Below are positions 28,663 to 44,546 of a DNA stretch of 64,000 nt, piece by piece. Where the stretch lies: the IMG/VR virus record IMGVR_UViG_3300044961_000667; one strand, written 5' to 3'. Made by a program: the position numbers and the translations under genes. Positions within the stretch are counted from its first letter, which is position 1. Every line of letters begins with the position of its first letter. The DNA comes from a virus. The notes beneath the pieces are model-generated. The model was not told the DNA's origin, did not search any database, and worked only from the letters and a program-made list of their open reading frames with translations.

Positions 28663-28716
28663 GGGCTTCTCCTTTTCGTCCCATAGAGCCCGCATGGTCG
28701 CCGGCGTCAAGCGCTC

Positions 28717-30302: not shown

Positions 30303-30319
30303 GATTGAGTTCTCTTTCT

Positions 30320-30829: not shown

Positions 30830-30835
30830 GTCTCC

Positions 30836-30895
30836 TCAGAAGCAGCAGCTATCACGATAGCCGCACTTGGGGCACTTGTCGTCTGTCGGCTTCAT
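30836..30895 (-). pseudogene. Displaced duplicate 3' end of the zinc-ribbon gene
   Basis: MKPTDDKCPKCGYRDSCCF* versus MKPEHAHYICPKCHYRDSCCF* at 31282-31347. Confidence 0.8.
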
Positions 30896-31278: not shown

Positions 31279-31281
31279 GAC

Positions 31282-31479
31282 TCAGAAGCAACACGAGTCC
31301 CGATAGTGACACTTCGGGCAAATGTAGTGCGCGTGTTCGGGCTTCATCGTCGTCGAGCACTGGGGGCACGACGTCGACAAGTCGCAGCTCGCCGGCTTTT
31401 CTTCCGTCAGCACTCGCGCGTTCGACGGCTGGCGCGAGCGCTGCGGAAGCTCCTCTGTGATCAGTCCCGGCTTTTGCAC
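31282..31479 (-). CDS. Small zinc-ribbon protein
   Basis: CPQC...CPKC..RDSCCF. Confidence 0.7.
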   Translation of the reverse strand: MQKPGLITEELPQRSRQPSNARVLTEEKPASCDLSTSCPQCSTTMKPEHAHYICPKCHYRDSCCF

Positions 31480-31819
31480 CGGGCCAATCTACGCGGCCTG
31501 GTTTTCAGATTCAAGAGCGTACTCCTTCAGAGCCAGCTCGACGGCCTCAGCCTGCTGCTCCGAGGTGTGCTGCTTGAAGTGCACCTTTCGCCGGCTGTGG
31601 GCGATGAGCTGGTACAGCCGACTGGCGTGCTGCTTCTCGGCTTTCAGCCGGGCGATCGTGCCAGGCGTGAACTTCTTGAACGTCGGGTCCCAGCTGCCGC
31701 TCTCCAGTCGCGGCTGATGCGACTCGCGGAGAATGCCCTTCAGCATCTTGATCTCCGCCTCGATGTCCTTCCGGTCCTGGTGCAGCTTCTTCAGGTTCAG
31801 CTTCATGGCCTTCTCTCCT

Positions 31820-32165
31820 TCAACGAAGCAAGGAGAGCCGCCCGAGCGCCCTCCTCACGGTGGGGGTTCGGACGGTGGGCACGATGCCCAACGCCATGAG
31901 CGCGCCGTTGAAGGGCGCGTCGGGCTCTCTGATGGCTGTGTGCGGGATGCCGAGACGCTGAAGCTCGGCTTCGAGCCGAAGCAGCTCCTCCTCGTCGGAG
32001 ACGGCAAGAGCAACAGCTCTGGTACTCGGGGGGACTTGCTCGCGGACGGACTCGCCGGCCGCGTGAATCGTCTGGGCAACCTGCACCCCTGGGGGCAGGT
32101 CTCGCCTCAAGACGACGTAGTGGTACAGCGGCTCTTCGTTACAGCACTACCTGGCTCAGCGACAT
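31820..32165 (-). CDS. Peptidyl-tRNA hydrolase type 2-like (Pth2/PTRHD1); the RBS-linked ATG is one frame off
   Basis: YHYVVLRRDL...QVAQTIHAA...IREPD...ALMALG. Confidence 0.8.
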
Positions 32166-32181
32166 GTGCTTCTCCTTTCAG

Positions 32182-32210
32182 CGCCCACGACGGGACTCGA
32201 ACCCGCTTCG
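32182..32210 (-). pseudogene. 3' part (T arm and acceptor) of split tRNA-like gene
   Basis: GCGGG TTCGAGT CCCGT CGTGGGC G pairs with GCCCTCG at 32758-32752. Confidence 0.8.
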
Positions 32211-32620
32211 ACGACGATGGGTTCTTTCAGCATGGCAGTTGGCACAAACAACCTCGCACTTCGCCAACTCCATTCTCACATCTTCCTCTGAACGGGCGTG
32301 GTTGACCATCCTCGACACGTCGTCTTGCTTCGTTCCCCTGACGTGATCAAACTGCATCACCCACGGCCCATACTGATGGCCACAGTCCGTACACGGCGTC
32401 GTGCTCTTGATCTCGTTGGCGATCTTGCGAAGCGTTTCACGCTTGATCGACTTGTACGCCCTGTTCTTGTCGACGTACTTCTGGTGATTGGAGCGGTAGT
32501 GCTTTCGCGAACCCTTCTGCATGCACACCCGACATCGCGAATGCCGCAGCGTCGGCTTCCTCTTCCAGTTGAAGTCGTCCTCTGACTTGAACCGTTCGCA
32601 TCCGGAGCACCACTTCTGAA

Positions 32621-32696
32621 CGCCCCCGGCGGGAATCGAACCCGCAACCCGTTCGCCTGTAGTCGGCGACAGCTCTGCCAGTTGAGCTACGGAAGC
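32621..32696 (-). tRNA. Intact tRNA-like gene with non-canonical loop GACUACA (central triplet CUA; identity undetermined)
   Basis: Cloverleaf with normal D and T arms; A33, C37, 3 extra nt. Confidence 0.75.
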
Positions 32697-32711
32697 ATCT
32701 TCCACATCATC

Positions 32712-32758
32712 TCCGTCCACCTGTAGTCGGCGGTTGCTCGCCTATGAGCTACGAGGGC
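32712..32758 (-). pseudogene. 5' part of split tRNA-like gene (same GACUACA loop)
   Basis: GCCCTCG TA GCTC ATAGGC GAGC AA CCGCC GACTACA GGTGG ACGG. Confidence 0.8.
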
Positions 32759-33046
32759 CTGTTCCAACCTGAGGAGATCGTAACTCCTGCAGGAGTTTCG
32801 TCAAGTGACTGACTGCGCCGGCTCCTTGCAGTCGATGCAGTAGCCGCACGAGCCGCACCGGTACTTCACCCAAACGCCCTGCACCTTCGACACCCCCGCC
32901 GAGCGTCCGTCCTCCTGGCGCGTGATGCCAGGCTTCTTGCACTGCGGGCAGATGCCTTGCTTCAGCTTCTCGTCGATCTGCTGACTCCATTCCTGGATGG
33001 CAGCGACAACGTCCTGAGGCGGCTCTTTCACTTCTCCTCCGTACCA

Positions 33047-33426
33047 TGGAGCTGCGGGGAATCGAACCCCGGTCCGAAAGCCTTCAGTCCTTCGACTCTA
33101 CGTGCGTAGCCGCTGTCACCGCGGCCGAGTCCTGCTGCCCGCTGGTCTTTCCCCGCATTCGCCGAGCGGACTGGGCGGGGGCAACTCCTGGGTGGGTTTC
33201 GCCTCGCCAGCTACGCAGGAGCGCCTCGCTGGTTCGACGGAGAGCTAAGACTTTCGGTCCGCTCTCAAGCCCTGATCAGGGCAACCGCTCACGCGGCTGC
33301 GAGCATCGGGGCCGCCTCGACGTTGTCGTTGGCGGTTGTGGTTTCTCACTGGGATTTACGAGCACAGCGAGCTGCTCGGCACGCATCTCAGGTCGTCTTT
33401 GCCCCCGTCGAATCCAGTTCAGCCCC
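33047..33426 (-). ncRNA. ssrA: tmRNA; tag peptide ANDNVEAAPMLAAA
   Basis: 5' GGGGCTGAACTGGATTCGAC, 3' GGTTCGATTCCCCGCAGCTCCA, G3-U70; tag frame 33333-33289. Confidence 0.95.
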
Positions 33427-33806
33427 GTTCACTGCTTCCTTCAAGCAACGGCGATAGGCGCCCGTGCCGAACATCCGGTCGGTGCGCCCAACGCAGGGAG
33501 TTGTGGTCCCCCGCATCGCCGTCCTCATCATCTCGCGCGTCGGTGTCGCCTGCACTTTTCGCACTGGCCCGTGCTGTCGAACACGCACAGCTCCTGATTC
33601 ACACCGCATCCCACGTACTGCGCGACCGAGTCGACGCGGAGCTGGGCTTCGTGGCCGCTCTCACGCGAGTCCGCTGCTCTCTGCGACTGCTCGTTCTGCG
33701 TCATGGGGGTGCGCCTTCTGTTCTTGGTCGAACTGACTGTCAAGATCATCAATGACACCAGTGGACAGTGTTCGTCAAGGGGAACCGGACAGCAGCGACA
33801 GTTTCT

Positions 33807-33872
33807 CGACCCGTCCAGGAGTCGAACCCAGCACCACGCCCTTAGAAGGGGCCGGCGGATCCATCACGGGCC
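33807..33872 (-). tRNA. tRNA-Arg(UCU), D arm reduced (66 nt)
   Basis: GCCC CTTCTAA GGGC; T arm and acceptor intact. Confidence 0.7.
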
Positions 33873-33885
33873 TCAACAACAACAG

Positions 33886-33970
33886 CGGAGCGCCCGAGAG
33901 TCGAACTCGGCTGACCCGTGAAGGTCGTCGCGTTAGCAGTGCGATGCCGTCCCACGCTGGCTCACGCTCC
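33886..33970 (-). tRNA. tRNA-Ser(GCU)
   Basis: Loop CTGCTAA, long V arm, G73. Confidence 0.9.
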
Positions 33971-33973
33971 ATG

Positions 33974-34061
33974 CGGAAAAGGCGAGAGTCGAACTCGCAG
34001 ACCGCCCGAAGACGATCGTCCGCTTTCCAAGCGGGTGGGCTCACCAGTGCCCAGCTTCTCC
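33974..34061 (-). tRNA. tRNA-Ser(GGA)
   Basis: Loop TTGGAAA, long V arm. Confidence 0.9.
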
Positions 34062-34064
34062 ATG

Positions 34065-34153
34065 CGGAGCGGGTCCGAGTCGAACGGACAGCCCGCCTTT
34101 CGACGAGCAAGCGCTTTCGAGACGCTCTGACTTGCCTGTGTGCAAACCGCTCC
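34065..34153 (-). tRNA. tRNA-Ser(CGA)
   Basis: Loop CTCGAAA, long V arm. Confidence 0.9.
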
Positions 34154-34249
34154 AGAAACACCCTCAGATGACCGCCTGAGGGGCGCGGGGGCCTGTTGGC
34201 CGAGATGCCCCTAGCTGTCGCCAGTTCGTGAGCGTCTCGGGACGGCTTG

Positions 34250-34336
34250 CGGAAGACGGAGGACTCGAACCCCACACCCACTCGGGGTGCCGACCGCTTT
34301 CAAGGCGGGCCAGCGTCCATCACTGGTTCATCTTCC
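34250..34336 (-). tRNA. tRNA-Ser(UGA)
   Basis: Loop CTTGAAA, long V arm. Confidence 0.9.
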
Positions 34337-34337
34337 A

Positions 34338-34667
34338 TCACTGCGATCGCGGCTGATCGGCGTTCCAGACGGAGCGGCCCATCGCTCCCTCATCGGCCTC
34401 AGCGTTCTTCAACATCGAGTAGTAGTCCGGTCGCTCCTTCAGGTGCGCCCAGGCGATCTTCCCGATGTCGAGCAGGTCGTCAACCACGTCGGTCTCCGGG
34501 TCGACGTCATGCTCCGACTCAACCCCGAGACCGGCCGCGAACTCTCCGAGGTCGACCTGGCTCCAGTCGATCCCCAGCTGGTCGCCAACCCACTTCGCCA
34601 GCTCAGGGCTCCATGCCGGCGCCTCGCCGACCTCTTCCTTCAGCTGCCTGACGAGCTTCCTGAGCAT
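34338..34667 (-). CDS. DUF5661-like protein
   Basis: GIDW...EFAAGLGVESEH...KIAWAHLKERPDYYSML. Confidence 0.75.
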   Translation of the reverse strand: MLRKLVRQLKEEVGEAPAWSPELAKWVGDQLGIDWSQVDLGEFAAGLGVESEHDVDPETDVVDDLLDIGKIAWAHLKERPDYYSMLKNAEADEGAMGRSVWNADQPRSQ

Positions 34668-34707
34668 GCGGTGGCCTCCGGGCGCACAGTACACCCAGAG
34701 GCCACCC

Positions 34708-35250
34708 TCAGTCTTCCAGCTCGGTGTTCCAGTACGCCACCGAGGCGAGCCACTGCTTCCACGGCTCGGGCATGCCCTTCTTCCAGGTGAAGGTGAGCCG
34801 CACCGACTCGGGCAACGACTTCGGCTTCACCGGCACCTGCAGGAGCTTCATGCCTGCCTGCGCTGGCGTCCGACCGCCCTTCTTCTGGTTGCAGGGCGTG
34901 CACGACACCACGATGTTCTCCCACGTCGTGTGGCCGCCCTGCGTGCGCGGGACGACGTGGTCGTACGTGAAGTCGTGCCTGGGCACCTTCGCCGAGCAGT
35001 ACTGGCACTTGCCCTTGTCTCGCGTGAAGACGTTCTCGCGACTGAACTTGATCGCCTTCTTCTTGCCGCGGATCGCCCGGAGGAACCGGATCACCGACGG
35101 CACCTTGAACTCCAACGTCATCGAGCGGACGGTCTTGTCCTCGTACTCCTCGACGACTTCCACCTTCTCCTCCCAGAGGAGGGTGATCGCCCGTTGCCAG
35201 CTCACGCGGGCAACCGGGGTGTAGCCAACATCGAGCACCAGCGTTTCCAC
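34708..35250 (-). CDS. HNH endonuclease (McrA-like)
   Basis: TLVLD..Y.P...WQRAI...PSVIR...SRENVFTRD...CQYC...DHVVPR.QGG.TTWEN...C..CN. Confidence 0.9.
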   Translation of the reverse strand: METLVLDVGYTPVARVSWQRAITLLWEEKVEVVEEYEDKTVRSMTLEFKVPSVIRFLRAIRGKKKAIKFSRENVFTRDKGKCQYCSAKVPRHDFTYDHVVPRTQGGHTTWENIVVSCTPCNQKKGGRTPAQAGMKLLQVPVKPKSLPESVRLTFTWKKGMPEPWKQWLASVAYWNTELED

Positions 35251-35288
35251 GTTGCCCGTCCTTTCTGCGGCCTTCGCCGCGGTGAGTG

Positions 35289-35373
35289 TAGTCCCGGCCG
35301 GACTCGAACCGGCACGGCCTTTGTGGCCACTGGGGTTTGAGCCCAGCGCGTCTACCGACTCCGCCACGGGACC
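35289..35373 (-). tRNA. tRNA-Leu(CAA)
   Basis: Loop CTCAAAC, long V arm. Confidence 0.9.
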
Positions 35374-35378
35374 ATCTG

Positions 35379-35467
35379 TGCTCGGGGCGAGACTCGAACT
35401 CGCATGAGGCTTTCGCCCCACCGGCTTCTGAGGCCGGCGTGTCTACCGAAGGTTCCACCACCCGAGC
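35379..35467 (-). tRNA. tRNA-Leu(CAG)
   Basis: Loop CTCAGAA. Confidence 0.9.
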
Positions 35468-35478
35468 ATGCACTTCAG

Positions 35479-35565
35479 TGGTCCGGGCGAGAGTCGAACT
35501 CGCATGATCTTTCGATCGGCAGGCTCTCAACCTGCTGTGTCTACCGGAGGTTCCACCACCGGACC
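35479..35565 (-). tRNA. tRNA-Leu(GAG)
   Basis: Loop TTGAGAG. Confidence 0.9.
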
Positions 35566-35569
35566 AAAG

Positions 35570-35642
35570 TACCCGCTCTCGGAATCGAACCGAGCCCTCC
35601 GCCTTGTGAAAACGGCGCTCTCACCAGTTGAGCTACGCGGGC
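35570..35642 (-). tRNA. tRNA-Val(CAC)
   Basis: Loop TTCACAA. Confidence 0.85.
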
Positions 35643-35645
35643 ATG

Positions 35646-35717
35646 TCGTGAGCCTGGGAGTCGAACCCAGCTGGGCGGATTATGAGACCGCTGCCTTCCC
35701 TCGATGGCTTGCTCACG
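35646..35717 (-). tRNA. tRNA-Met/Ile2(CAU)
   Basis: Loop CTCATAA. Confidence 0.85.
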
Positions 35718-35720
35718 GAG

Positions 35721-35793
35721 TAGCAGGGGCTGGGATCGAACCAGCGTTCTCCAGGTTATGAGCCTGGCGAGATGACCTCTTCTCCACCCTGCA
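35721..35793 (-). tRNA. tRNA-fMet-like (CAU)
   Basis: Loop CTCATAA; unpaired 1:72. Confidence 0.85.
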
Positions 35794-35794
35794 G

Positions 35795-35868
35795 TACTCC
35801 CGGAGGGACTCGAACCCCCAGCCTCTTCGTTCGTAGCGAAGCGATCTGATCCGTTGATCTACGGGAGC
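35795..35868 (-). tRNA. tRNA-Arg(ACG)
   Basis: Loop CTACGAA. Confidence 0.9.
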
Positions 35869-35880
35869 ATCAAACAACAG

Positions 35881-35954
35881 CGGTCTCGGCGGGACTCGAA
35901 CCCGCGGCCTTTCGCTTCGGAGGCGAACGCTCTCATCCACTGAGCTACGAGACC
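35881..35954 (-). tRNA. tRNA-Arg(CCG)
   Basis: Loop CTCCGAA. Confidence 0.9.
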
Positions 35955-35956
35955 AG

Positions 35957-36029
35957 CGTTCCCGGAGGGACTCGAACCCCCGACTTCTCCGTTAGGACCG
36001 GAGCACTCTTCCAACTGAGCTACGGGAAC
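35957..36029 (-). tRNA. tRNA-Arg(CCU)
   Basis: Loop GTCCTAA. Confidence 0.85.
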
Positions 36030-36035
36030 ATCCTG

Positions 36036-36106
<71 letters not shown>

Positions 36107-36505
36107 TCAACCAACCACGTACTTCTCAGCCAACTTCACACCGGACTTCTGACCGTTCTTGGCAGGCTCGACCCGAAGCTGCCCGCCAACGGCCCCAACC
36201 TCCTCGACCGGGACCAGATACACCGCATCCAACTCTGGGCAGTGGACGCCGAAGAACTCGACCTCACCGCGGTACGACTTTCTCCCAGTCCCTCGGTGAG
36301 CCGAGTTGCTGCTGGTGTCGAAGACAACCGCTCCATTCTTGAGCCGCCCAGTCTTGCACTGCACTCGCTGGAACCCGGCATCAGTGTCGATCACCAGGTC
36401 GTAGCGCTGGTTCTCTCCAATCGGGAGCAGCACCGTCCTCCCGGTCTTGAGCAACGCCGCCATCACCGCACCCTCTGTTCTCGTCCCCTGCGCCTTGGTG
36501 TTCAT
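36107..36505 (-). mobile_element. PD-(D/E)XK endonuclease (group I intron-associated type)
   Basis: G...E......LLP.GENQRYDLVID...RVQCKTGR...Y.GEVEFF. Confidence 0.85.
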
Positions 36506-36520
36506 GCTCCACATCTACCA

Positions 36521-36567
36521 CACCGCTCGGACACCAGCCGAGTGCTCTGCCTTCGAGCTGCGGGGGC
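36521..36567 (-). pseudogene. 5' fragment of tRNA-Thr(GGU), no T arm
   Basis: GCCCCCG CA GCTC GAAGGCA GAGC A CTCGG CTGGTGT CCGAG CGGTG. Confidence 0.85.
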
Positions 36568-36571
36568 GCTG

Positions 36572-36644
36572 TGGATCTGGCCGGACTCGAACCGGCAACC
36601 TTCTGCGTGCAAAGCAGCCGCTCTCCCATTGGAGCTACAGACCC
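36572..36644 (-). tRNA. tRNA-Ala(UGC)
   Basis: Loop TTTGCAC, G3-U70. Confidence 0.9.
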
Positions 36645-36649
36645 TTCAG

Positions 36650-36722
36650 TGGAACCGGCGGGACTTGAACCCGCCACCTCTCGCATGCGAAGCGAGCGCT
36701 CTCCCAGATGAGCTACGGCCCC
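36650..36722 (-). tRNA. tRNA-Ala(CGC)
   Basis: Loop TTCGCAT, G3-U70. Confidence 0.9.
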
Positions 36723-36727
36723 AGGTG

Positions 36728-36798
36728 TGCGCGAGCAGGGAGTCGAACCCTGTCGTCTCCCGCGTCGGGGGAGTGCTCTACCGGTGAGCTACACGCGC
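36728..36798 (-). tRNA. tRNA-Val(GAC), C33
   Basis: Loop CCGACGC. Confidence 0.85.
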
Positions 36799-36887
36799 AT
36801 GGGCAGGCGGTGCTTTCGCCGAGCTGCCAGCAGTCACCACGTTCGTGACCCCGGCCCTGCTCGGTAGACTGCCACCTCTCCTGCTTG

Positions 36888-36960
36888 TGGACCCGGCGGG
36901 GATCGAACCCGCTACCTCTCGCATGCCATGCGAGCGCTCTCCCAAGTGAGCTACAGGCCC
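36888..36960 (-). tRNA. tRNA-Ala(GGC)
   Basis: Loop ATGGCAT, G3-U70. Confidence 0.9.
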
Positions 36961-37052
36961 TAAGCGAGGCAGTTCGTAACGCTGCCTGCCCGGCTTTCCA
37001 CCGGCGCGGGTTGATCAGACCCACGAGACTTGCCCGGAGCGACCGGGCCATG

Positions 37053-37125
37053 TGCCGTCCCTCGGAATCGAACCGAGATCCTCCGCTCTTCAGGCGGGTG
37101 CATGGACCACCACTGCCAAGACGGC
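37053..37125 (-). tRNA. tRNA-Phe(GAA)
   Basis: Loop CTGAAGA. Confidence 0.9.
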
Positions 37126-37134
37126 GTACTTCAG

Positions 37135-37206
37135 CGGACCCGAACGGAATCGAACCGTCCTCGCCGGCGTGACAGGCCGGTCGCCTCACCAGATGCGTAC
37201 GGATCC
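37135..37206 (-). tRNA. tRNA-Asp(GUC)
   Basis: Loop CTGTCAC, G73. Confidence 0.9.
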
Positions 37207-37211
37207 AACAG

Positions 37212-37294
37212 GGCGACTGGAGAGAATCGAACTCTCACTGAGCTTTCGCTCGCGGGGTCACAACCCGCTGGGAACCCATTTCCCATCAGCCGCC
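37212..37294 (-). tRNA. tRNA-His(GUG) with long variable arm
   Basis: Loop TTGTGAC; G-1:C73; V arm GAGC-GAAA-GCTC. Confidence 0.85.
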
Positions 37295-37302
37295 AGAAGA
37301 AA

Positions 37303-37422
37303 TCTGCTCCACCCGAGTGAGGAAGGCATGAAACGGGTTTGAACCGTCTGGTCGATTTAGCAGATCGACTGATCACCAAGATCAGTAGTGCGTGTGAGCC
37401 ATCCTCGGCCGGGTGGTGCAGA
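37303..37422 (-). ncRNA. tRNA-mimic RNA (D, anticodon and T arms on a long imperfect stem)
   Basis: GATC TTGGT GATC / GTCGAT CTGCTAA ATCGAC / ACGG TTCAAAC CCGT inside TCTGC..CCACCCG..GAGGA terminal stem. Confidence 0.65.
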
Positions 37423-37423
37423 G

Positions 37424-37495
37424 TCCGCCGCAGTGGAATCGAACCACTTGCCTCTCGCTTATCAGGCGAGTGCTCTTCCAGTGAGCTACCGGCGG
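37424..37495 (-). tRNA. tRNA-Ile(GAU)
   Basis: Loop CTGATAA. Confidence 0.9.
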
Positions 37496-37504
37496 GCACG
37501 TCAG

Positions 37505-37578
37505 TCAGGGTGGCTGGGATCGAACCAGCGACCTCCTGCATCCGAAGCAGGCGCGCTACCAGGCTGCGCTACACCCTG
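37505..37578 (-). tRNA. tRNA-Pro(CGG)
   Basis: Loop TTCGGAT. Confidence 0.9.
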
Positions 37579-37588
37579 TTGAGTCAAG

Positions 37589-37625
37589 TCAGGTCGGCTG
37601 GGATCGAACCAGCGATCTCCTGCAT
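37589..37625 (-). pseudogene. 3' half of split tRNA-Pro(GGG)
   Basis: AT GCAGG AGATC GCTGG TTCGATC CCAGC CGACCTG A. Confidence 0.9.
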
Positions 37626-38035
37626 CACCAGACGTGGTCACTGGCCAGCAGGATGTTCTTCTTGGCCCCATTCGCGGGGGCCTCCAATCTCACATGCAGG
37701 ATCGACTTCCCCTGGAACTCCTCAGGCAGGAAGGCCGTCACCACGTCCATCTCAGGCAGATACACCAGAAGCAGGTCAACCTCCCCGACCTCATACTTCT
37801 TGAACGACTTGTTGCTCGGTCCCACCCACGTCCTCAGAGCCACAGTCGCCACGCCGGACGAATGAGACGACTTGCCGCCTCCATACTTCGCTTGGGCCCG
37901 GATCAACCTAACACCATCATCCAGAACCAGATCGTACCTGGCATCGGTTGTGGGCCGACTGACGACAAACCCCTTCTCAATCGCCCTCTGCTGCGCCTTC
38001 AGCGATGCCACTTCACCCTTCTGCCTGGTGTCCAC
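37625..38035 (-). mobile_element. PD-(D/E)XK endonuclease inside split tRNA-Pro
   Basis: KGE......GFVVSRP...RYDLVLD...RAQAK...Y...EVDLLLVY. Confidence 0.85.
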
Positions 38036-38066
38036 TTCTCTTGCGTACCACACAGGAGAACATCTG

Positions 38067-38138
38067 TCGAAGAGACTGGACTCGAACCAGCATCCTCACG
38101 GCCCCCAGCCGTGCGCTCCACCATTGAGCTACTCCTCG
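38067..38138 (-). tRNA. tRNA-Pro(GGG), intact copy nested inside the split gene
   Basis: Loop CTGGGGG. Confidence 0.9.
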
Positions 38139-38143
38139 TCACG

Positions 38144-38178
38144 CCCGAGCAGGCGCGGTACCACTCCGCTACGACCTG
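38144..38178 (-). pseudogene. 5' half of split tRNA-Pro(GGG)
   Basis: CAGGTCG TA GCGG AGTGGTA CCGC G CCTGC TCGGG; pairs perfectly with the 3' half. Confidence 0.9.
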
Positions 38179-38182
38179 AAAG

Positions 38183-38254
38183 TCTGGAAGGCGGGGATCG
38201 AACCCGCGACCTCTCGCGTCCAAGGCGAGCGCCCTACCGCTGGACTACTTCCAG
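38183..38254 (-). tRNA. tRNA-Pro(UGG)
   Basis: Loop CTTGGAC. Confidence 0.9.
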
Positions 38255-38438
38255 TTGTGCAATCGATTGCGTTCAAAACTGTGCAGTGCGGACTGGCGGT
38301 TTGCACCCGCTGCACCGCATTGTCGGCCTGGCCTCAATAGGCCGCACGGTCCCACGCCGTCGAACGCCAGGACCTGCACCAACCACCGCCATGTTCGACC
38401 TGCCAAGCGGTGCCCGTTCATGCCGGGATGCTGCACAG

Positions 38439-38510
38439 TACCCCGTACGAGAATCGAACTCGTTTCGCTCGCTTGAAGGGCGAGGGGCCTAACCAATGGC
38501 CGAACGGGGC
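38439..38510 (-). tRNA. tRNA-Glu(UUC), C33, intact copy downstream of HNH
   Basis: CTCGC CCTTCAA GCGAG. Confidence 0.85.
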
Positions 38511-38845
38511 TTCTCTGCTCGATCATGCGTCCTCTGCCGATGACAGTTGGCGCAGACCACTTCACATTTCTCGATCTCGGCTACGACCTTCTCAGGTCCG
38601 ACACCGTGCCTCTTGAACTGCCCCAGGCTGAACTCCTTCCGACCCCTGACGTGATCAAAGTCCATCACCCATGGCGGATAGGCGACACCGCAGTCCGCGC
38701 ACGGCCTGGACTTGGCTTTGTCGATGATCGCCTTGATCGTCTCTTTGTAGGCCGCTGCCGCTCTGATGTACGAGATCTTGTTCTTCTCGTAGTGCCTGCG
38801 GCTGTACTCGGCCTGCTTCGACTTCGACGGCTCTCTGAGCGGCAT
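38489..38845 (-). mobile_element. HNH endonuclease, paralog of 32178-32705
   Basis: PCADCG...VMDFDHVRG...KCEVVCANCHRQRT; last codons overlap tRNA-Glu. Confidence 0.9.
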
Positions 38846-38872
38846 TCTTCGTCATACCACTTGACGAACCTT

Positions 38873-38924
38873 TCGTCACTCCACCTTGAAAGGGTGTCGG
38901 CCTCACCTGAAGCACCAACGGGGC
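38873..38924 (-). pseudogene. 5' fragment of tRNA-Glu(UUC)
   Basis: GCCCCGT...CACC CTTTCAA GGTG, then AGTG ACGA and breaks off. Confidence 0.8.
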
Positions 38925-38929
38925 TGAAG

Positions 38930-39000
38930 TACCGCGTACGGGTGTCGAACCCGTCTCACTGGGCTGAGAACCCAGGGACCTCCCGGAAGTCGAACGCGGC
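38930..39000 (-). tRNA. tRNA-Glu(CUC)
   Basis: Loop TTCTCAG. Confidence 0.9.
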
Positions 39001-39006
39001 TTGAAG

Positions 39007-39079
39007 AGGCGGAGGCGGGAGTCGAACCCGCTCGATGTCGGTTTTGCAGACCGATGCCTTCCCAGTTGGCTACTCCGCC
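39007..39079 (-). tRNA. tRNA-Cys(GCA)
   Basis: Loop CTGCAAA, U73. Confidence 0.9.
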
Positions 39080-39101
39080 AGGGAAAGACGAGACTGTGCA
39101 C

Positions 39102-39458
39102 ATGAAGCGCGTGCTGTGCCTTGATGACGACGACATGGTGGCCCGGCTCATCGCCGAGGTGGTCGAGTTCTGCGGACACGAGCCCGTTCGAGAGAGCGAC
39201 CCGCTGAAGGCTTCCTCGGACCACCTCCACGACCGGAAGATCGCTGCGGTGCTCACCGACTACATGATGCCTCGCCTCGATGGCGTCGACGTTCTGGTGG
39301 TCTGGCAGGAGTCTCGACCCGAGGTGCGCCGAGTGCTGATCACCGCGGCCCCGAACGAGCCGGCGGTGAAAGAGGCCCTCCGCACCGGCGTCGCTCAGAT
39401 GGTGATCGCTAAGCCTCCGACGATCGCCGACATCAAGATGGCCCTGGCCTGGCTCTGA
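39102..39458 (+). CDS. Single-domain response regulator (CheY-like receiver)
   Basis: VLCLDDD, TDYMMPRLDG, LITA, IAKP. Confidence 0.9.
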   Translation: MKRVLCLDDDDMVARLIAEVVEFCGHEPVRESDPLKASSDHLHDRKIAAVLTDYMMPRLDGVDVLVVWQESRPEVRRVLITAAPNEPAVKEALRTGVAQMVIAKPPTIADIKMALAWL

Positions 39459-39459
39459 G

Positions 39460-40023
39460 CTACCGCTTCTTCCTCGCCAGTCGCTCCTCCAGCTGCTGAA
39501 CCGACATCTGGATGGAGTCGTTGATCGACCGCATCATGTCCTGCCGGAGCTTGTACTCCAGCTCCTGCAGCTTCTTGTCGGAGGCGTCCTTCGACTCCTT
39601 CTCGCGCTGGCGGTAGTACTCACCCTGTTTCTCGATGCGCTGGTCCACCGCCTGCCGGATCTCCGAGACCGTTCCCTTCATGGCCTCGATGGCCGACAGC
39701 ACCTGCTTCATCTCGGTCTGAACGTTGCCGACCGACTTGTCGATACCGGCCAGGGCGTCGCTCTGCTCGTCGAACTTGTCGTCGTGCTCGTCGAGCCGCT
39801 CTTCGGTCTTCTGCTTGTCCTTGTCCTCGCGGTCGACCGTCCGCGAGCCCAGCCACTTGACGAAGCCAACGACGGCTCCGATCAACTGGGTGACGACTGC
39901 TGCTCCGACCAGCAAGTACAGCCCGGTCAGCCCGTCACCTGCTGGCGCTGGCGGTGGGGTTGCTGCTGCGGCTCCTGCCGCCGCCGCCGCCGCCGGGCCC
40001 GCCGCCAAGATCAACAGGTTCAA
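39460..40023 (-). CDS. Single-TM coiled-coil membrane protein
   Basis: Hydrophobic segment followed by heptad repeats. Confidence 0.7.
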   Translation of the reverse strand: MNLLILAAGPAAAAAAGAAAATPPPAPAGDGLTGLYLLVGAAVVTQLIGAVVGFVKWLGSRTVDREDKDKQKTEERLDEHDDKFDEQSDALAGIDKSVGNVQTEMKQVLSAIEAMKGTVSEIRQAVDQRIEKQGEYYRQREKESKDASDKKLQELEYKLRQDMMRSINDSIQMSVQQLEERLARKKR

Positions 40024-40026
40024 GAA

Positions 40027-40383
40027 CTACTCCTTGCTCGACAGATCGTCGTCGTCGTCGGGCTCTTCAGAGGGCACCGCCGACACCGGAGTCGCTGGCG
40101 GGAGGTTCACCTGCAGCTTGGCCGCAATGGCGTCCACCACCTTCGACGTGTGCCGGCTTTCCATCTGCATCGACATCATCAGCTTCTCGCCTCGGAGCGT
40201 GCGCTCGTCGACATGCTTCACGGCGGTCTTCAGTGCCGCCAGGTCCTCGCCGAAGCCGGCCATTTTGGACCTCATCTCGTGCATGTCCTCTTCGAGCTTT
40301 GCCACTCGCGAGGCCAGGCTGATGGCCGTCGGCTTCCGCTTTCTTGGGGCCGTACGGAGGCCCCTCCCTCTGGTGTCACGCAA
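40027..40383 (-). CDS. Coiled-coil hypothetical protein
   Basis: ORF with acidic tail. Confidence 0.65.
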   Translation of the reverse strand: MRDTRGRGLRTAPRKRKPTAISLASRVAKLEEDMHEMRSKMAGFGEDLAALKTAVKHVDERTLRGEKLMMSMQMESRHTSKVVDAIAAKLQVNLPPATPVSAVPSEEPDDDDDLSSKE

Positions 40384-40492
40384 AGTCGCTCTCCGAAGAA
40401 GCGGTCCACGGTCGTGGTTCTCTCACGGCCTGCTGTTGGTTGACTGCTCCATCTTTCGCCCTCTTCTGGGCATCCGTCAACTGTCACTGATG

Positions 40493-40567
40493 CGTACCCT
40501 CTCGGAATCGAACCGAGCACCGTCGGCTTAACAGGCCGCTGCTATCAACCAGACCAGCTCAGGGCAC
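40493..40567 (-). tRNA. tRNA-Asn(GUU)
   Basis: Loop CTGTTAA, G73. Confidence 0.85.
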
Positions 40568-40573
40568 ATCGTA

Positions 40574-40644
40574 CTGGGGAGGAAGGGATCGAACCTTCTC
40601 CGTCGGCTTCAGAGACCGCTGCGCTACCCTTGCGCCACTCCCCA
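40574..40644 (-). tRNA. tRNA-Gln(CUG)
   Basis: Loop CTCTGAA, U1-A72. Confidence 0.9.
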
Positions 40645-40656
40645 ATGTCTTTCGCT

Positions 40657-40722
40657 CAGGGGCCCTGGGAATCGAACCCAGCTCGTCGGCTTCAAAGGCC
40701 GACTCACTCCCTGAGTACCCCT
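40657..40722 (-). tRNA. tRNA-Gln(UUG), miniature D arm (66 nt)
   Basis: Loop CTTTGAA; D arm CTCA-GGGAG-TGAG. Confidence 0.7.
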
Positions 40723-40727
40723 CCATG

Positions 40728-40799
40728 AGCGGGTGGCGAGGATCGAACTCGCGCATCCTGGGTTGGAAGCCCAGAGCCTTTCCGCTTGGCTACACCCGC
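40728..40799 (-). tRNA. tRNA-Gly(UCC)
   Basis: Loop CTTCCAA, U73. Confidence 0.9.
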
Positions 40800-40802
40800 A
40801 TG

Positions 40803-40873
40803 TACCGCCGCTGGGGATCGAACCCAGTCCCTCCGCTTAAAAGGCGGTTGCTCTACCCTTGAGCTACGACGGC
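40803..40873 (-). tRNA. tRNA-Lys(UUU)
   Basis: Loop CTTTTAA. Confidence 0.9.
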
Positions 40874-40912
40874 GCGTGGACCTGCGCCGTCGCGTTTCAT
40901 CTTCGTCTTCAT
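40853..40912 (-). CDS. Candidate Lys-rich regulatory mini-ORF MKTKMKRDGAGPRAVVAQG
   Basis: AAGGAG-6 nt-ATG; runs into tRNA-Lys(UUU). Confidence 0.55.
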   Translation of the reverse strand: MKTKMKRDGAGPRAVVAQG

Positions 40913-40930
40913 CGTCGTCTCCTTGTCGAG

Positions 40931-41018
40931 TGGTGGGAAGGCTCGGAGTCGAGCCGAGCTGGGACGCAATGCCACCCGCTTTACAGGCGGGCCACGAGCC
41001 CTACGTGTCTACCTTCCC
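40931..41018 (-). tRNA. tRNA-Tyr(GUA)
   Basis: Loop CTGTAAA, V arm, encoded CCA. Confidence 0.9.
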
Positions 41019-41021
41019 ATG

Positions 41022-41092
41022 AGCGGCATCCGGGAATCGAACCCGGTTCAGTGGCCTGGCAGACCACGGCCCAACCAATAGACCAATGCCGC
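41022..41092 (-). tRNA. tRNA-Gly(GCC)
   Basis: Loop CTGCCAG, U73. Confidence 0.9.
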
Positions 41093-41174
41093 ATACGGCT
41101 TTGTCGCTGACGGCCGCGCAGATCCTCGTGCGGAATGCACGAAGGACTGAACGTCTGCCGGCGACAGAAGCCAG

Positions 41175-41245
41175 TGGGCCCTGAGGGGATCGAACCCTCT
41201 CCTGACGCTTAAGAGGCGCCTGCTCTACCCTTGAGCTAAGGACCC
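41175..41245 (-). tRNA. tRNA-Lys(CUU)
   Basis: Loop CTCTTAA. Confidence 0.9.
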
Positions 41246-41295
41246 AGATTCGGCCAGCCCGACTAGACGTCAGACAGGTGGCCGAACTGTCGCTG

Positions 41296-41316
41296 CTATC
41301 CAGTTTTCAGAGAACA
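41296..41316 (-). promoter_or_regulatory. rrn-type boxA-like antitermination site
   Basis: TGTTCTCTGAAAACTGGATAG. Confidence 0.6.
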
Positions 41317-41325
41317 GAACTGCGA

Positions 41326-41399
41326 AGCACCAGGTCGGGCTCGAACCGACGACCTGCGGTTTACGAAACCGCTGCTGCTACCTGCTGAGCTACTGGTGC
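41326..41399 (-). tRNA. tRNA-Thr(CGU)
   Basis: Loop TTCGTAA. Confidence 0.9.
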
Positions 41400-41403
41400 A
41401 CTG

Positions 41404-41477
41404 CACGGCGAGCAGGAGTCGAACCTGCAGCGTCGGGTTTTGGAGGCCCGTTCCCTTCCCGTTGGGGACTTCGCCGT
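41404..41477 (-). tRNA. tRNA-Trp(CCA)
   Basis: Loop CTCCAAA, G73. Confidence 0.9.
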
Positions 41478-41539
41478 ATACCGTTGTTCCTTTCCTTTTG
41501 ACGAAACATCCTCTCGAAGACTGACCTGCGGTGGTGCAG

Positions 41540-41580
41540 AAAAGCGAAAGGCCGGGACCCTTTTGGGGTGCCCGGCCTCC
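41540..41580 (-). terminator. Intrinsic terminator in tRNA-operon leader (attenuator candidate)
   Basis: AGGCCGGG(C)ACCC-CAAAA-GGGTCCCGGCCT followed by TTCGCTTTT. Confidence 0.75.
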
Positions 41581-41605
41581 GTGAGCGATCCAATGTGCTA
41601 CTGGA

Positions 41606-41776
41606 TCAGGTTCTCATGGAGCCGGGCCGTCGGTGGTCGCTGGTACCCAGATTCTGCTCGGGCTGATAGGCGACCACGCTTTCGACGGACCAAAGGCACG
41701 AACGCAAAAACGCCGGTCGAGCGGCCATGGCCGCCCCGGCGATTCGCTTCGTCAGCGCTTTGGTTGAGGTCGACAT
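41606..41776 (-). CDS. Candidate leader peptide (56 aa, all 20 amino acids)
   Basis: AAGGAG at 41794-41789; GTG 41785 or ATG 41776; stop 25 nt before the terminator. Confidence 0.6.
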   Translation of the reverse strand: MSTSTKALTKRIAGAAMAARPAFLRSCLWSVESVVAYQPEQNLGTSDHRRPGSMRT

Positions 41777-41804
41777 CGAAAGCACGTGCTCCTTGATGTC
41801 CAGC

Positions 41805-41834
41805 AGAGTACCCACCTGACGAATTCGCCGTCAA
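41805..41834 (-). promoter_or_regulatory. sigma70-like promoter of the tRNA operon
   Basis: TTGACG-18-TACTCT. Confidence 0.7.
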
Positions 41835-41856
41835 GCACCTGACGACGATTCTTCGA

Positions 41857-42792
41857 TCAGTACCAGCCCGCGGGGTTCAACGTCGGGTTGTTCTCGAACG
41901 GGTACTGCTCACCGCCACCCTCGTCGTCATCCTGCCAACCAGGAGCGCCCTGTTCCATCTCCGGGTCGGACTCGATGCTTCGACGAACTTCCTTCTCCAT
42001 GAAGTCGGCGATCACCGCCATCATCGCCTCGTCGTCTTCAGCTCCCTGCATCGCGCTCACGAGCGAGCCCTCGTCCGAGTCGGCCTCGACCAGCATCTGG
42101 CCGTGGAGCTGGAACGCCTCGACGAAGTCGATCTTCTTCAGGAAGCTCTGCCACGCATCCCTCGCGTAGTCGGCGACCTTCTCCTTGAACTTGCCGGTGC
42201 CGATGTCTCGACCGCGGTAGAAACCCTTGAGAAAGGTCCTCGCGATCGACTTCGCGATTCCTCCGGCCACGTCGGAGACCTTCTTCTTCTCCTCGGGAGA
42301 CGGCTTCTTCCCGGCCGCCGCCCCCTTGAGCGCCTTGGTCGCTTCCTTGGCTGCTTCGGGATTCTTGGCGACAGCCTTGGCAGCGGCCTTCTTCGCGCGG
42401 CCCTTGCCCTTCGCGACCTTCGCCTGACCAGGGGCTTTCTTCGGGGCCGGCGCCTCGGCATCACCCTTCGGCTTGTCGACCTTGGTGGCCGGCTGCCCCT
42501 TCGGCTTCTTCGCGGAACCACCCTTCTCGGGCACCTTCTCCCAGTCGCCCTCCTTCGTCTTGACGAAGGTGCCCGCCTTGCGCTTCCGCTTCTCACCCGG
42601 CTTGGCGACGTTGGTGCCCTGGCCCTTGCCGGCGGCAGTCTTCGCCACCGACGGCTTGCCCACCGCGGTTCCACCCTTCTTCTGCAGCTGCGAGATCGGG
42701 ATGAGCACCGGAGACGTCTTCACGTCGCGCGGGTACGGGCCCTTCTCAACGAGGGAACGCATCTGCTCCACGAGTGAAGAGAGGCTGCTCAC
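41857..42792 (-). CDS. Lys/Ala-rich protein with acidic C-terminus (possible internal head protein)
   Basis: AGGAG RBS; LVE motifs; histone-H1-like composition. Confidence 0.7.
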   Translation of the reverse strand: MSSLSSLVEQMRSLVEKGPYPRDVKTSPVLIPISQLQKKGGTAVGKPSVAKTAAGKGQGTNVAKPGEKRKRKAGTFVKTKEGDWEKVPEKGGSAKKPKGQPATKVDKPKGDAEAPAPKKAPGQAKVAKGKGRAKKAAAKAVAKNPEAAKEATKALKGAAAGKKPSPEEKKKVSDVAGGIAKSIARTFLKGFYRGRDIGTGKFKEKVADYARDAWQSFLKKIDFVEAFQLHGQMLVEADSDEGSLVSAMQGAEDDEAMMAVIADFMEKEVRRSIESDPEMEQGAPGWQDDDEGGGEQYPFENNPTLNPAGWY

Positions 42793-42800
42793 GTCGACTC

Positions 42801-43154
42801 CTACGCGCTCTTGCGGGCGCGGAAGATCGCGGTGCGCGCCAGCTCGTCCATCCACGATGCGTCCGCGAGCACCGACTGGATCGAATCAGTCAACTGACCC
42901 ATGTACTCGTTCACGCGAGGCACGGTGATCTCCTCGGGCCGCCCCTGGTACTCGCGAGCAAGGTGCGCGGCCAGGTGATCGGCGAGCAGCTCTCGCAACA
43001 TCACGCGGGCGTCTGCCTTCAGCGCCTCGTTCTCATCGTCGTGGAACGGGTCCTCGTCAGTCTCCCCGGCGTCTTCCACCCCCGCCGACAGGTGATCGAG
43101 CGTGGCCTGCATCTCGTCGAGGTCTTCGAGGATCTTCTCGGCACTGACTCCCAT
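42801..43154 (-). CDS. Acidic hypothetical protein
   Basis: GAGGTGG RBS; palindrome directly upstream. Confidence 0.7.
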   Translation of the reverse strand: MGVSAEKILEDLDEMQATLDHLSAGVEDAGETDEDPFHDDENEALKADARVMLRELLADHLAAHLAREYQGRPEEITVPRVNEYMGQLTDSIQSVLADASWMDELARTAIFRARKSA

Positions 43155-43185
43155 CGTCCACCTCGTGCAATCGATTGCGTGAGCG

Positions 43186-43572
43186 CTACGGCTGCTGCGC
43201 CTTGTTCACCGCGAACACGACTACCACGACTGTGGCCGCGCCGAGAACGAAGCCCGACACGAGGCCGATCTGCCCTTTATACTCGCTCCAGAAGGTCGGC
43301 TTCAGCACCTCGACCTGCTTCTTGTAGGCGTCCTCCTTCTTGGCCCACGCCTCCTTGTCGGCTTCGTACTCGCGCCGCAGCTTCTTCAGGTCCACCTTGT
43401 CGGCGAACGTCTGCTCGGCCAGCTGCTCCGGGAACAACAGGCCAGGGAACGGCGCCTTTTCTCCGGTCTCCAGCGGAACGATGACTCCTGCGTCGGCCAG
43501 GGGGACATCGACCGGCGGATCGGCAAAGGCCGGCAGGCAGACCAACAACGTCAGCAGGGCGATCAGTCTCAC
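43186..43572 (-). CDS. Signal-peptide protein with coiled coil and C-terminal TM (spanin-like)
   Basis: MRLIALLTLLVCLPAFA; C-terminal hydrophobic helix. Confidence 0.6.
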   Translation of the reverse strand: MRLIALLTLLVCLPAFADPPVDVPLADAGVIVPLETGEKAPFPGLLFPEQLAEQTFADKVDLKKLRREYEADKEAWAKKEDAYKKQVEVLKPTFWSEYKGQIGLVSGFVLGAATVVVVVFAVNKAQQP

Positions 43573-44546
43573 GGGGGCACCACGGGGAGCGTCGGGTTGC
43601 GACGGTACACTTTCGTGTTCGTCGGGTTGTCGTTGTCGTCTCGCAGATCGAACACCTGGATCGGCGTGAGTCCATCGACGTCGTACAGCGTGAGCTGGAA
43701 CGACTCGATCTTCCACTTCCCGAAGGCCACCTTGCGGGCGGCGAGCGCGTGAGCCAGCGAGTCGGAGAACATCTTGCCGAACGTCCCGGCGGACGCGTGG
43801 CCAGCCGTGGGCTCGTCGTAGATCAGGTCGACGAGAGCCGGGTGGTTGGCGGCCACGTTCAACTGCGTGCCGGCCTGGCCGGCGGTGTTGTACCCGCTGA
43901 TGCTCTTGTCCCAGACCGCCGTCGCGATGGCAGCGTTGTCGATCGTGAGGTTCGACGCGTCGAACAGCGCCTGCCCTGCCTTGCCCGCGCCCAGGTGGCC
44001 GGCCAACAGCTCCTCCCAGACGTCGCCAGCGACCGTCAGAACCTCGTTGAAGACCGCCTGGCCGCTCTTGCCGTCGTTGTTGCCGGCGGTGTCGCCTCGG
44101 ATGGACTCCTTGTAGAGCAACGCCTTGCCGAACACCGTCGCGGCTGCCGAGTTGTCGGTCGGGTCGCCGAGCTGATCGACGCGAAGGCCCTTCTGCCCGG
44201 CCGCGTACGCCGTGCTGTCGGACCAGACGTCGGTCACGATCTGCGAGATCGGCTCATCGAGGAAGGCATCGCGCGGGCTAATCGCCCCCTTGATGTACCG
44301 CACCTCCTCGGTGGGGATGCTGGCTCCGCCGTCGACCATGAAGACGATGTCGGGATCGTTCTTCGTCGTCCACGTCCAGTCGAAGTAGTACTCGCCGTTG
44401 CTCTTCTCGACGATCCCACCGACCGGCGAAGCAGGCGACGTCGCACCGAAGGTGTCGGCGCGCTGGAAGAACGTGAAGATCGGCGCGAGCCCCGTGTCGG
44501 AGTTGCGGAAGTTCAGGAAGTAGCGCTTGACGACTGGGAATGGCAT
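43569..44546 (-). CDS. Virion structural protein
   Basis: Repeated VW(D/E)...H...G.AG units; C-terminal domain similar to 56113-56604. Confidence 0.7.
   Translation of the reverse strand: MPFPVVKRYFLNFRNSDTGLAPIFTFFQRADTFGATSPASPVGGIVEKSNGEYYFDWTWTTKNDPDIVFMVDGGASIPTEEVRYIKGAISPRDAFLDEPISQIVTDVWSDSTAYAAGQKGLRVDQLGDPTDNSAAATVFGKALLYKESIRGDTAGNNDGKSGQAVFNEVLTVAGDVWEELLAGHLGAGKAGQALFDASNLTIDNAAIATAVWDKSISGYNTAGQAGTQLNVAANHPALVDLIYDEPTAGHASAGTFGKMFSDSLAHALAARKVAFGKWKIESFQLTLYDVDGLTPIQVFDLRDDNDNPTNTKVYRRNPTLPVVPP

Follow-up and report, generated by a model that had tools for sequence, protein, structure and literature searches.

The subject of this analysis is a leader mini-gene in a 64,000-nucleotide (nt) stretch of viral DNA, IMG/VR record IMGVR_UViG_3300044961_000667, which is referred to throughout as the window. 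On its minus strand the transfer RNA (tRNA) genes tRNA-Tyr(GTA) and tRNA-Lys(UUU) are separated by a 57-nt leader that consists entirely of a ribosome-binding site (RBS), a start codon and the first part of a short reading frame (Table 1); gaps between tRNAs of the same array are mostly 1-12 nt. The frame runs on into the tRNA-Lys gene and is closed by a TAG in the D-loop (40855-40853, tRNA nt 19-21). Its codons after the ATG are AAG, ACG, AAG, ATG and AAA, which places lysine at codons 2, 4 and 6. A first-pass annotation had described this start (AAGGAG, 6 nt, then three lysines in the first six codons) together with a pairing of 40893-40884 with 40875-40866 that would lock up the 5' acceptor strand of the tRNA, and both descriptions are accurate in every coordinate on the minus strand. 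The two strands, GCGACGGCGC and GCGCCGTCGT, form a helix of 10 base pairs (bp) with one G-U, and the captured stretch includes tRNA nt 1-8.

The tRNA that follows has the features of a functional tRNA-Lys(UUU), folding into a cloverleaf with UUU in a 7-nt anticodon loop. Read from the sequence, its acceptor stem contains the wobbles G1-U72 and U5-G68, the discriminator is A and the CCA is not encoded. The idea that the leader retains part of a tRNA 3' half was rejected, as inspection by eye shows no T-arm-like sequence.

Table 1. Positions of the leader, its parts and other features of the window
Feature	Coordinates	Strand	Remarks
Leader, the complete spacer between tRNA-Tyr and tRNA-Lys, 57 nt	40874-40930	-	6 nt + RBS + 6 nt + 13 codons, nothing else
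Shine-Dalgarno-like AAGGAG	40919-40924	-	6 nt 5' of ATG; from sequence
ACGACG between RBS and ATG	40913-40918	-	complementary to tRNA nt 3-8; seen in constrained fold
Leader reading frame, MKTKMKRDGAGPRAVVAQG, 19 codons and stop	40853-40912	-	ATG 40912-40910; 13 codons in leader, 6 in tRNA
AAA (codon 6), presumed sensor codon	40895-40897	-	21 nt upstream of tRNA
5' strand of blocking helix (anti-acceptor), GCGACGGCGC	40884-40893	-	begins 1 nt past AAA
3' strand of blocking helix, GCGCCGTCGT	40866-40875	-	last 2 leader nt and tRNA nt 1-8 (5' acceptor strand and U8)
tRNA-Lys(UUU), 72 nt	40802-40873	-	ARAGORN; Rfam RF00005, 61.7 bits against a threshold of 29
tRNA-Tyr(GTA)	40931-41018	-	upstream neighbour; 3' CCA 6 nt ahead of leader RBS (ARAGORN, sequence)
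Transfer-messenger RNA (tmRNA), tag ANDNVEAAPMLAAA	33047-33426	-	ARAGORN, Rfam
PTH2-like peptidyl-tRNA hydrolase	31820-32110	-	24.9 bits, cut-off 23
tRNA with anticodon CUA	32620-32697	-	ARAGORN, called as Pyl
Two PD-(D/E)XK (PDDEXK_5) endonuclease genes	36107-36514, 37625-38053	-	within tRNA array
Two HNH endonuclease genes	34708-35421, 38489-38845	-	within tRNA array
GIY-YIG/NUMOD3 endonuclease gene	27979-28710	-	outside tRNA array

The leader frame and its AAA codon in relatives

We scanned metagenome contigs with a pattern made from the D-arm and anticodon loop of tRNA-Lys(UUU), which returned 96 loci carrying 100 matching tRNA-Lys(UUU) genes in 73 distinct contexts, none of them near-identical to the window. 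Among cultured phages, blastn of the window region and of loci L014 and L036 against 50,697 phage records gave tRNA-length matches only, and patterns for the neighbouring protein and two tRNAs retrieved no locus from the IMG/VR viral contigs. A leader frame with a start codon precedes tRNA-Lys(UUU) at 21 of the 96 loci (14 of the 73 distinct contexts). These fall into about 8 lineages: the window; the L006 group (L006/L016/L031, L085, L010, L092, L013 and L043); L041; L045; L011/L080; L018 and its copies with L091; the AT-rich L014/L025; and L072. Their leaders occupy spacers of 59-74 nt, or a comparable stretch, in the same layout as in the window, and are present regardless of whether Tyr, Lys(CUU) or Val(UAC) is the tRNA upstream. 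Of the other loci, four carry a long frame instead (L036, L049, L071 and L078), and 71 are single genes of bacterial type or arrays with short spacers, in which no leader frame is present.

Conservation was tabulated over 15 leaders, the window included. Every one of them has an ATG and an open frame that enters the tRNA, and 12 have a Shine-Dalgarno-like 4- to 6-mer 3-12 nt upstream of the ATG, none being found in L011, L014 and L025. The frame ends at the D-loop TAG in 12 leaders, in which the distance from ATG to tRNA is 36, 39, 42, 45 or 51 nt, all multiples of three; L014, L025 and L072 read the tRNA in another frame. Insertions and deletions upstream of the AAA comprise whole codons only. 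Identity between lineages is 47-67% for the leaders, close to what we estimate for optimally aligned unrelated 40-mers, and 69-97% for the tRNAs. By this comparison the leader frame is conserved and behaves like a translated frame.

The constant within the frame is a single codon, AAA. Each of the 15 leaders has it 13-27 nt ahead of the tRNA (24 nt in nine leaders, 21 in the window, 27 in L018/L091, 19 in L014/L025 and 13 in L072) and 9-21 nt from the ATG, in frame without exception. The conserved candidate sensor is this one codon and not the three lysines in six codons that had been proposed, since the number of lysine codons varies from 1 to 5 per leader. AAA is decoded by tRNA-Lys(UUU) alone, and it is rare in this phage. 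The 22 genes of the window (861-62606; 8220 codons) use AAA 8 times and AAG 357 times; of their 365 lysine codons, 8 (2.2%) are thus AAA, which accounts for none of the 15 lysine codons within the first ten codons of these genes. Genes flanking the element in GC-rich relatives show the same tendency, with AAA at 3 of 45 and 1 of 35 lysine codons. Since the phage hardly uses AAA, codon supply is unlikely to be the reason for its carrying tRNA-Lys(UUU).

To define the specificity of this arrangement we used a composite rule (an ATG with a Shine-Dalgarno-like motif, whose frame continues into the tRNA and contains the cognate codon 10-30 nt ahead of it). Twelve of 50 distinct tRNA-Lys(UUU) contexts with at least 45 nt of upstream sequence conformed to it, compared with 3 of 209 contexts of other tRNAs at the same loci (Fisher P = 2e-7), and those three resemble ordinary gene ends or isolated cases. 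A separate set of tRNA-Lys(UUU) genes with a commoner D-arm was sampled from viral contigs (120 out of an estimated 3700 loci, 77 of them distinct and with sufficient upstream sequence), and 2 of the 77 conformed. On these counts the element is strongly non-random.

One viral contig, L165, has a 51-nt spacer in which AAGGAG, 7 nt, an ATG and 10 codons (MDSDKSEKIC) lead into a tRNA-Lys(UUU) of a different type. Its frame contains two AAG codons and no AAA, and it may be an independent analogue. Five matches in genome contigs of Burkholderiales (L097-L101, from Albitalea, Ideonella, Rhizobacter and Comamonadaceae metagenome-assembled genomes) lie in dense tRNA arrays whose spacers measure 5-48 nt and hold no leader frame; their tRNA-Lys(UUU) has its D-arm and T-arm in common with the phage tRNA, from which no host assignment follows.

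Pairing between the leader and the acceptor strand

In the window the blocking helix belongs to the minimum-free-energy (MFE) structure, the blocked state being predicted at -43.1 kcal/mol compared with -33.8 kcal/mol for leader and tRNA folded separately. The leader with tRNA nt 1-16 folds at -21.8 kcal/mol, compared with -15.2 +/- 2.8 kcal/mol when the leader is shuffled with its dinucleotides preserved (z -2.3, P 0.037). The blocker strand is also specific for its own tRNA, with a predicted duplex of -22.1 kcal/mol compared with -7.9 to -15.0 kcal/mol for the other 11 tRNAs (shuffle P 0.012). No U-run follows the helix on the minus strand, and a terminator scan of that strand was empty, so that the helix is not followed by an intrinsic terminator. 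From the window alone the case for the element is modest, and it is the sequences of the relatives that raise it above chance.

Among those relatives, the energy of leader plus tRNA nt 1-16 exceeds that of dinucleotide shuffles throughout the L006 group (six members, z -2.3 to -4.1), in L041 (z -3.7) and in L014 (z -2.3), as it does in the window. The hairpin state is the MFE structure in the window, the L006 group, L041, L011 and L014, and in the same lineages the best partner of the 14 nt after AAA lies between nt -3 and 14 of the tRNA; in L045 it is the anticodon arm (nt 24-36). Sequence and register of the helix differ by lineage, the window pairing ACGGCGC with the acceptor strand and L041 pairing GGAAGCGAGA with the stretch from leader nt -4 to tRNA nt 6; the L041 blocker strand is likewise specific for its own tRNA. 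The position of the blocker relative to the codon is kept, since it begins 1-3 nt past AAA in the window, the L006 group, L041, L045 and L014. Mutually exclusive structures, one strand of which a stalled ribosome would cover, are predicted in silico in these five lineages and not in L018/L091 or L072.

Leaders of tRNA-Lys(UUU) are more structured than those of other array tRNAs, with a median z of -1.37 compared with -0.14 (16 and 174 contexts, respectively; P 5e-4). In MFE folds of full precursors, at least six of tRNA nt 1-8 are paired with the leader in 8 of 10 lysine leaders, compared with 10 of 167 other array tRNAs (P 9e-8).

Two further long spacers in the array of the window, 80 and 81 nt in length (41246-41325 and 41093-41173, minus strand), lie ahead of tRNA-Lys(CUU) and tRNA-Gly(GCC), respectively. 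Both form strong, self-contained hairpins (-35.5 and -43.4 kcal/mol including the tRNA start) that leave the tRNA untouched, and neither holds a reading frame. L016 and L041 have a comparable hairpin ahead of tRNA-Lys(CUU).

A proposed ribosome-read switch and its alternatives

We propose that the leader mini-gene lets ribosomes control when tRNA-Lys(UUU) folds and matures, a model built on sequence comparison and predicted folds in which we place about even confidence. With no ribosome on the leader, or after one has read through it, the leader strand would capture the 5' acceptor strand, at a predicted gain of ~9 kcal/mol over the cloverleaf. A tRNA whose acceptor strand is captured would form no cloverleaf and would offer no substrate to RNase P or other maturation enzymes. 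The footprint of a ribosome extends ~10 nt past the A-site codon. A ribosome waiting at AAA for Lys-tRNA(UUU) would cover nine of the ten blocker nt in the window, and the leader between it and the RNase P site would stay free over more than 10 nt; with the blocker masked, the tRNA would fold and be cut out, a step that is irreversible. A ribosome that does not stall would instead move onto the 5' half of the tRNA, terminate at the D-loop TAG and depart, upon which the blocker would recapture the acceptor strand. The net output would be negative feedback, slower decoding of AAA yielding more mature tRNA-Lys(UUU), whether the cause is a shortage of lysine, a host poor in this tRNA or host nucleases that destroy it. 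The six nt between RBS and ATG (ACGACG) could in addition act as a second, weaker blocker, going by their pairing in the constrained fold.

The first-pass annotation had likewise suggested that a ribosome stalled on lysine codons frees the tRNA. What stands of that suggestion is the frame, an AAA at near-fixed distance from the tRNA and, in most lineages, a pairing strand 1-3 nt past that codon. The presumed sensor, however, is a single AAA, and the helix is not universal, being absent or not significant in L018/L091 and L072 and directed at the anticodon arm in L045.

Several observations weigh against the switch. Those that concern the helix begin with the window itself, where the 129-nt stretch as a whole is unexceptional (z -1.35; 18 of 200 shuffles fold equally well). 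The energy of the helix is borderline in L011 (P 0.07) and not beyond shuffles in L045, L018 and L072, which overall leaves 4-5 lineages with a significant helix and 2-3 that lack one. In truncated constructs, pairing with tRNA nt 1-8 was also obtained with shuffled leaders, in 27-83% of trials, and therefore the energy alone is unusual, the pairing is not. Covariation, which the hairpin was expected to show in relatives, did not appear: the helix of the L006 group is 97% paired, with 12 of 14 pairs invariant and no double changes, the single pair that varies being G-U, A-U or G-C. When a ribosome-sized mask is placed at AAA, the full acceptor stem returns to the MFE structure in only 5 of 12 leaders, and in the window it is not restored, ACGACG (40918-40913) pairing with tRNA nt 3-8 instead, although nearest-neighbour folding of tRNAs is unreliable.

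Other points concern the codon and the distribution of the element. A phage that nearly avoids AAA lacks an evident reason to regulate tRNA-Lys(UUU). In most leaders the AAA is followed by C, and could be kept as an RNA motif, AAAC, rather than as a codon. L011 and L045 have a second AAA 6 nt from the tRNA, where a stalled ribosome would cover the cleavage site. The element is dispensable, because L021, L051 and L065, whose tRNA is closely related, have spacers of 7-22 nt and no leader. The lineages share ancestry, so that the P values given above overstate their independence; the contrast with the controls is large even so. Of 24 sequencing-run entries listed, 20 contain part of the stretch, in every case as contigs. 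Assembled contigs X10, X15 and X17 (from RNA libraries) and X14 (from DNA) are identical across the leader and silent on RNA ends, strand and level, and the three RNA-library contigs, which span the leader-tRNA junction, cannot show transcription, RNA ends or translation.

The alternative that best withstands these data is that translation of the leader restrains the tRNA and no codon is sensed: ribosomes on the 5' half of the tRNA would hinder its folding, or cleaved, stop-less leaders would be passed to tmRNA, AAA and helix being secondary. This would fit the retention of the frame that reaches the TAG within the tRNA in 12 of 15 leaders despite length changes, the wider conservation of frame than of helix, and the presence of a tmRNA and a PTH2-like hydrolase in the phage (Table 1). 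It does not account for the retention of a rare AAA by all leaders, with little variation in its distance from the tRNA, nor for a blocker that starts directly after it, and three leaders (L014, L025 and L072) are in another frame. We regard it as unlikely.

Less likely again is a link of the mini-frame to a small basic protein gene that adjoins tRNA-Lys(UUU) in other phages, the mini-frame being its relic or a shortened relative; in those phages a message cut by RNase P and left stop-less would be under control of the ArfA type; the window version may retain part of this. A candidate for such a gene lies at four loci (L036:2223-2340, minus; L049:801-918, plus; L071:1311-1440, minus; L078:1739-1856, minus), as a long frame of 39-43 codons with AAGGAG that enters tRNA-Lys(UUU) in the sole frame without a stop inside the tRNA. 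With no stop before or inside the tRNA, the message of a long frame would lack a stop codon once cut by RNase P. All four predicted products are basic and share the invariant residues APRN, G.H.K and KA.RR, and their K-rich starts and A(P)RNP stretch resemble the mini-frames of the window, L041 and L045. They match no family: ArfA and other known small proteins were considered as their identity and rejected, there being no match in Pfam, NCBIfam, a PDB profile, a protein atlas (whose clusters are unnamed) or a protein database. A relic would also be hard to reconcile with RBS, ATG, frame and AAA being kept while the leaders diverged to 47-67% identity, and the frame of the window, for its part, has a stop codon.

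It is a slim possibility that the element works as RNA only, helix and A-rich stretch serving as a processing or folding signal of a polycistronic precursor (such as a site for RNase E or RNase III, or a means of delaying folding) with the frame incidental. RNase E sites are typically A-rich single strands, AAAC is a recurrent motif here, and other spacers of the array hold strong hairpins (z down to -5). Those hairpins leave their tRNAs untouched, however, the helix is too short for RNase III, and a signal of this kind would not require that insertions and deletions upstream of AAA come in threes or that ATG and RBS be kept.

We consider it very improbable that the leader is a chance GC-rich spacer or a terminator of the plus strand, where the same inverted repeat is followed by CGTTTCATCT. 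The unexceptional 129-nt fold (z -1.35) is what chance would give, but recurrence in about 8 lineages is not, given controls of 3/209 and 2/77. A terminator scan does flag 40867-40892 on the plus strand, although its total of 2 sites compares with 1.4 in shuffles; the T-run exists only by virtue of the lysine codons and is absent in relatives such as L006, and the nearest plus-strand gene ends at 39458, with none close. The terminator reading was rejected for want of conservation and of a gene on which it could act. That the 19-residue basic micropeptide is itself the product is hardly tenable, for while the frame is kept open with a basic start in most relatives, the sequence is barely conserved beyond its richness in K and R, the last six residues are set by the tRNA sequence, and three leaders read the tRNA in another frame.

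The tRNA array, known attenuators and phage biology

The window has a G+C content of 61-67%, with nearly all genes on the minus strand, and its gene content is that of a phage (tail-fibre-like and collagen-repeat proteins, homing endonucleases, a pyrimidine-dimer glycosylase and a superinfection-exclusion gp17 domain). ARAGORN finds 38 tRNA genes and one tmRNA between 32620 and 41477, all on the minus strand; in 30000-44000 the Rfam gathering score is reached by tRNA and tmRNA only (30 tRNAs and the tmRNA). Five further tRNAs lie 3' of tRNA-Lys(UUU), followed by the next protein gene at 40027-40383. One of the array, tRNA-Gln(UUG) at 40657-40723 (minus strand), is 67 nt long, scores 30.3 bits against the Rfam threshold of 29 and may be degenerate. 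A solitary gene with a response-regulator receiver domain (39054-39458) lies in the middle of the array on the plus strand. The PTH2-like hydrolase, the tmRNA and the CUA tRNA together form a ribosome-rescue and suppression toolkit beside the array. No nuclease or repair gene was identified adjoining the leader element.

Ribosome-mediated attenuators with a leader peptide include trpL, hisL, pheL, thrL and leuL, as well as pheM before pheST. Like them, the phage leader has a short frame with its own RBS and start codon directly ahead of the gene it would regulate, a codon that matches the product (the in-frame AAA) and, by prediction in part of the lineages, a strand that a stalled ribosome would cover. 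Unlike them, it has no intrinsic terminator, it would act on how a tRNA folds and is processed rather than on transcription of an operon, its sensor would be one rare codon instead of a run, its product is the tRNA that reads the sensor codon, and switching need not be decided once only, during transcription. In ermC/cat attenuation a drug induces the stall and the hairpin hides the RBS of a protein gene. The phage leader shares with this class a leader-stalled ribosome that would open a hairpin hiding an adjacent downstream element, reversibly, at the RNA level and without a terminator. Here, however, the hidden part is tRNA nt 1-8, with the 5' acceptor strand, and not the RBS of a protein gene, and the stall would follow the supply of one tRNA.

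T-box riboswitches bind uncharged tRNA directly, without a ribosome, and control synthetase and amino-acid genes. The phage leader would similarly impose feedback on a translation-supply gene by the state of a specific tRNA, but would sense it through the ribosome, and a scan of 40780-41030 against Rfam 15 at E up to 1 gave the tRNA and two chance-level matches, with no T-box or other leader family. With ArfA-type control it would have in common a leader message that is stop-less once cleaved by RNase P, in a phage that has a tmRNA; no sequence similarity to ArfA was found for the long frames in Pfam, NCBIfam or a PDB profile search, and the frame of the window has a stop in the intact precursor. 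If the model holds, the leader represents a new form of ribosome-mediated attenuation that belongs to neither the leader-peptide nor the erm-type class, because it has no terminator and hides no downstream RBS. A full-text literature search returned, going by titles and abstract openings, nothing on a leader frame that controls tRNA maturation.

A motive for a phage to monitor tRNA-Lys may lie in conflict with its host. The first-pass annotation had pointed to tRNA-Lys(UUU) as the target of PrrC, and PrrC is indeed described as cleaving tRNA-Lys(ttt) (PMC10264068), which is background only as far as the leader is concerned. The PARIS effector AriB degrades host tRNA-Lys, and the tRNA-Lys of T5 rescues that phage (PMC11464382). 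The same tRNA species is thus at the centre of both conflicts and of the leader; these accounts concern nuclease-resistant or repaired tRNAs, and the available passages of the two papers describe no leader frame or control of maturation (PMC10264068, PMC11464382). A phage tRNA that measures its own decoding capacity could be released upon a stall at AAA as an alarm or reserve against defences that destroy tRNA-Lys(UUU), PrrC-like or PARIS-like. Such a role, rather than codon supply, is suggested because the phage genes avoid AAA, but we consider it an improbable extension of the switch model, and any link of the leader to host defence is speculation.

Should the switch operate as proposed, ribosome-sensed attenuation would extend beyond transcription termination and RBS exposure to the folding and maturation of a tRNA, which would feed back on its own production via the codon that it reads. 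The 57-nt element, defined to the single nucleotide, could then find use as a compact controller that puts engineered tRNAs under feedback. The switch would further account for the presence, in some large phages, of a tRNA whose codon they barely use, and would link phage tRNA arrays with the conflict over tRNA-Lys; if the alarm role were true as well, the leader would be a translation-coupled counter-defence sensor made of RNA alone.

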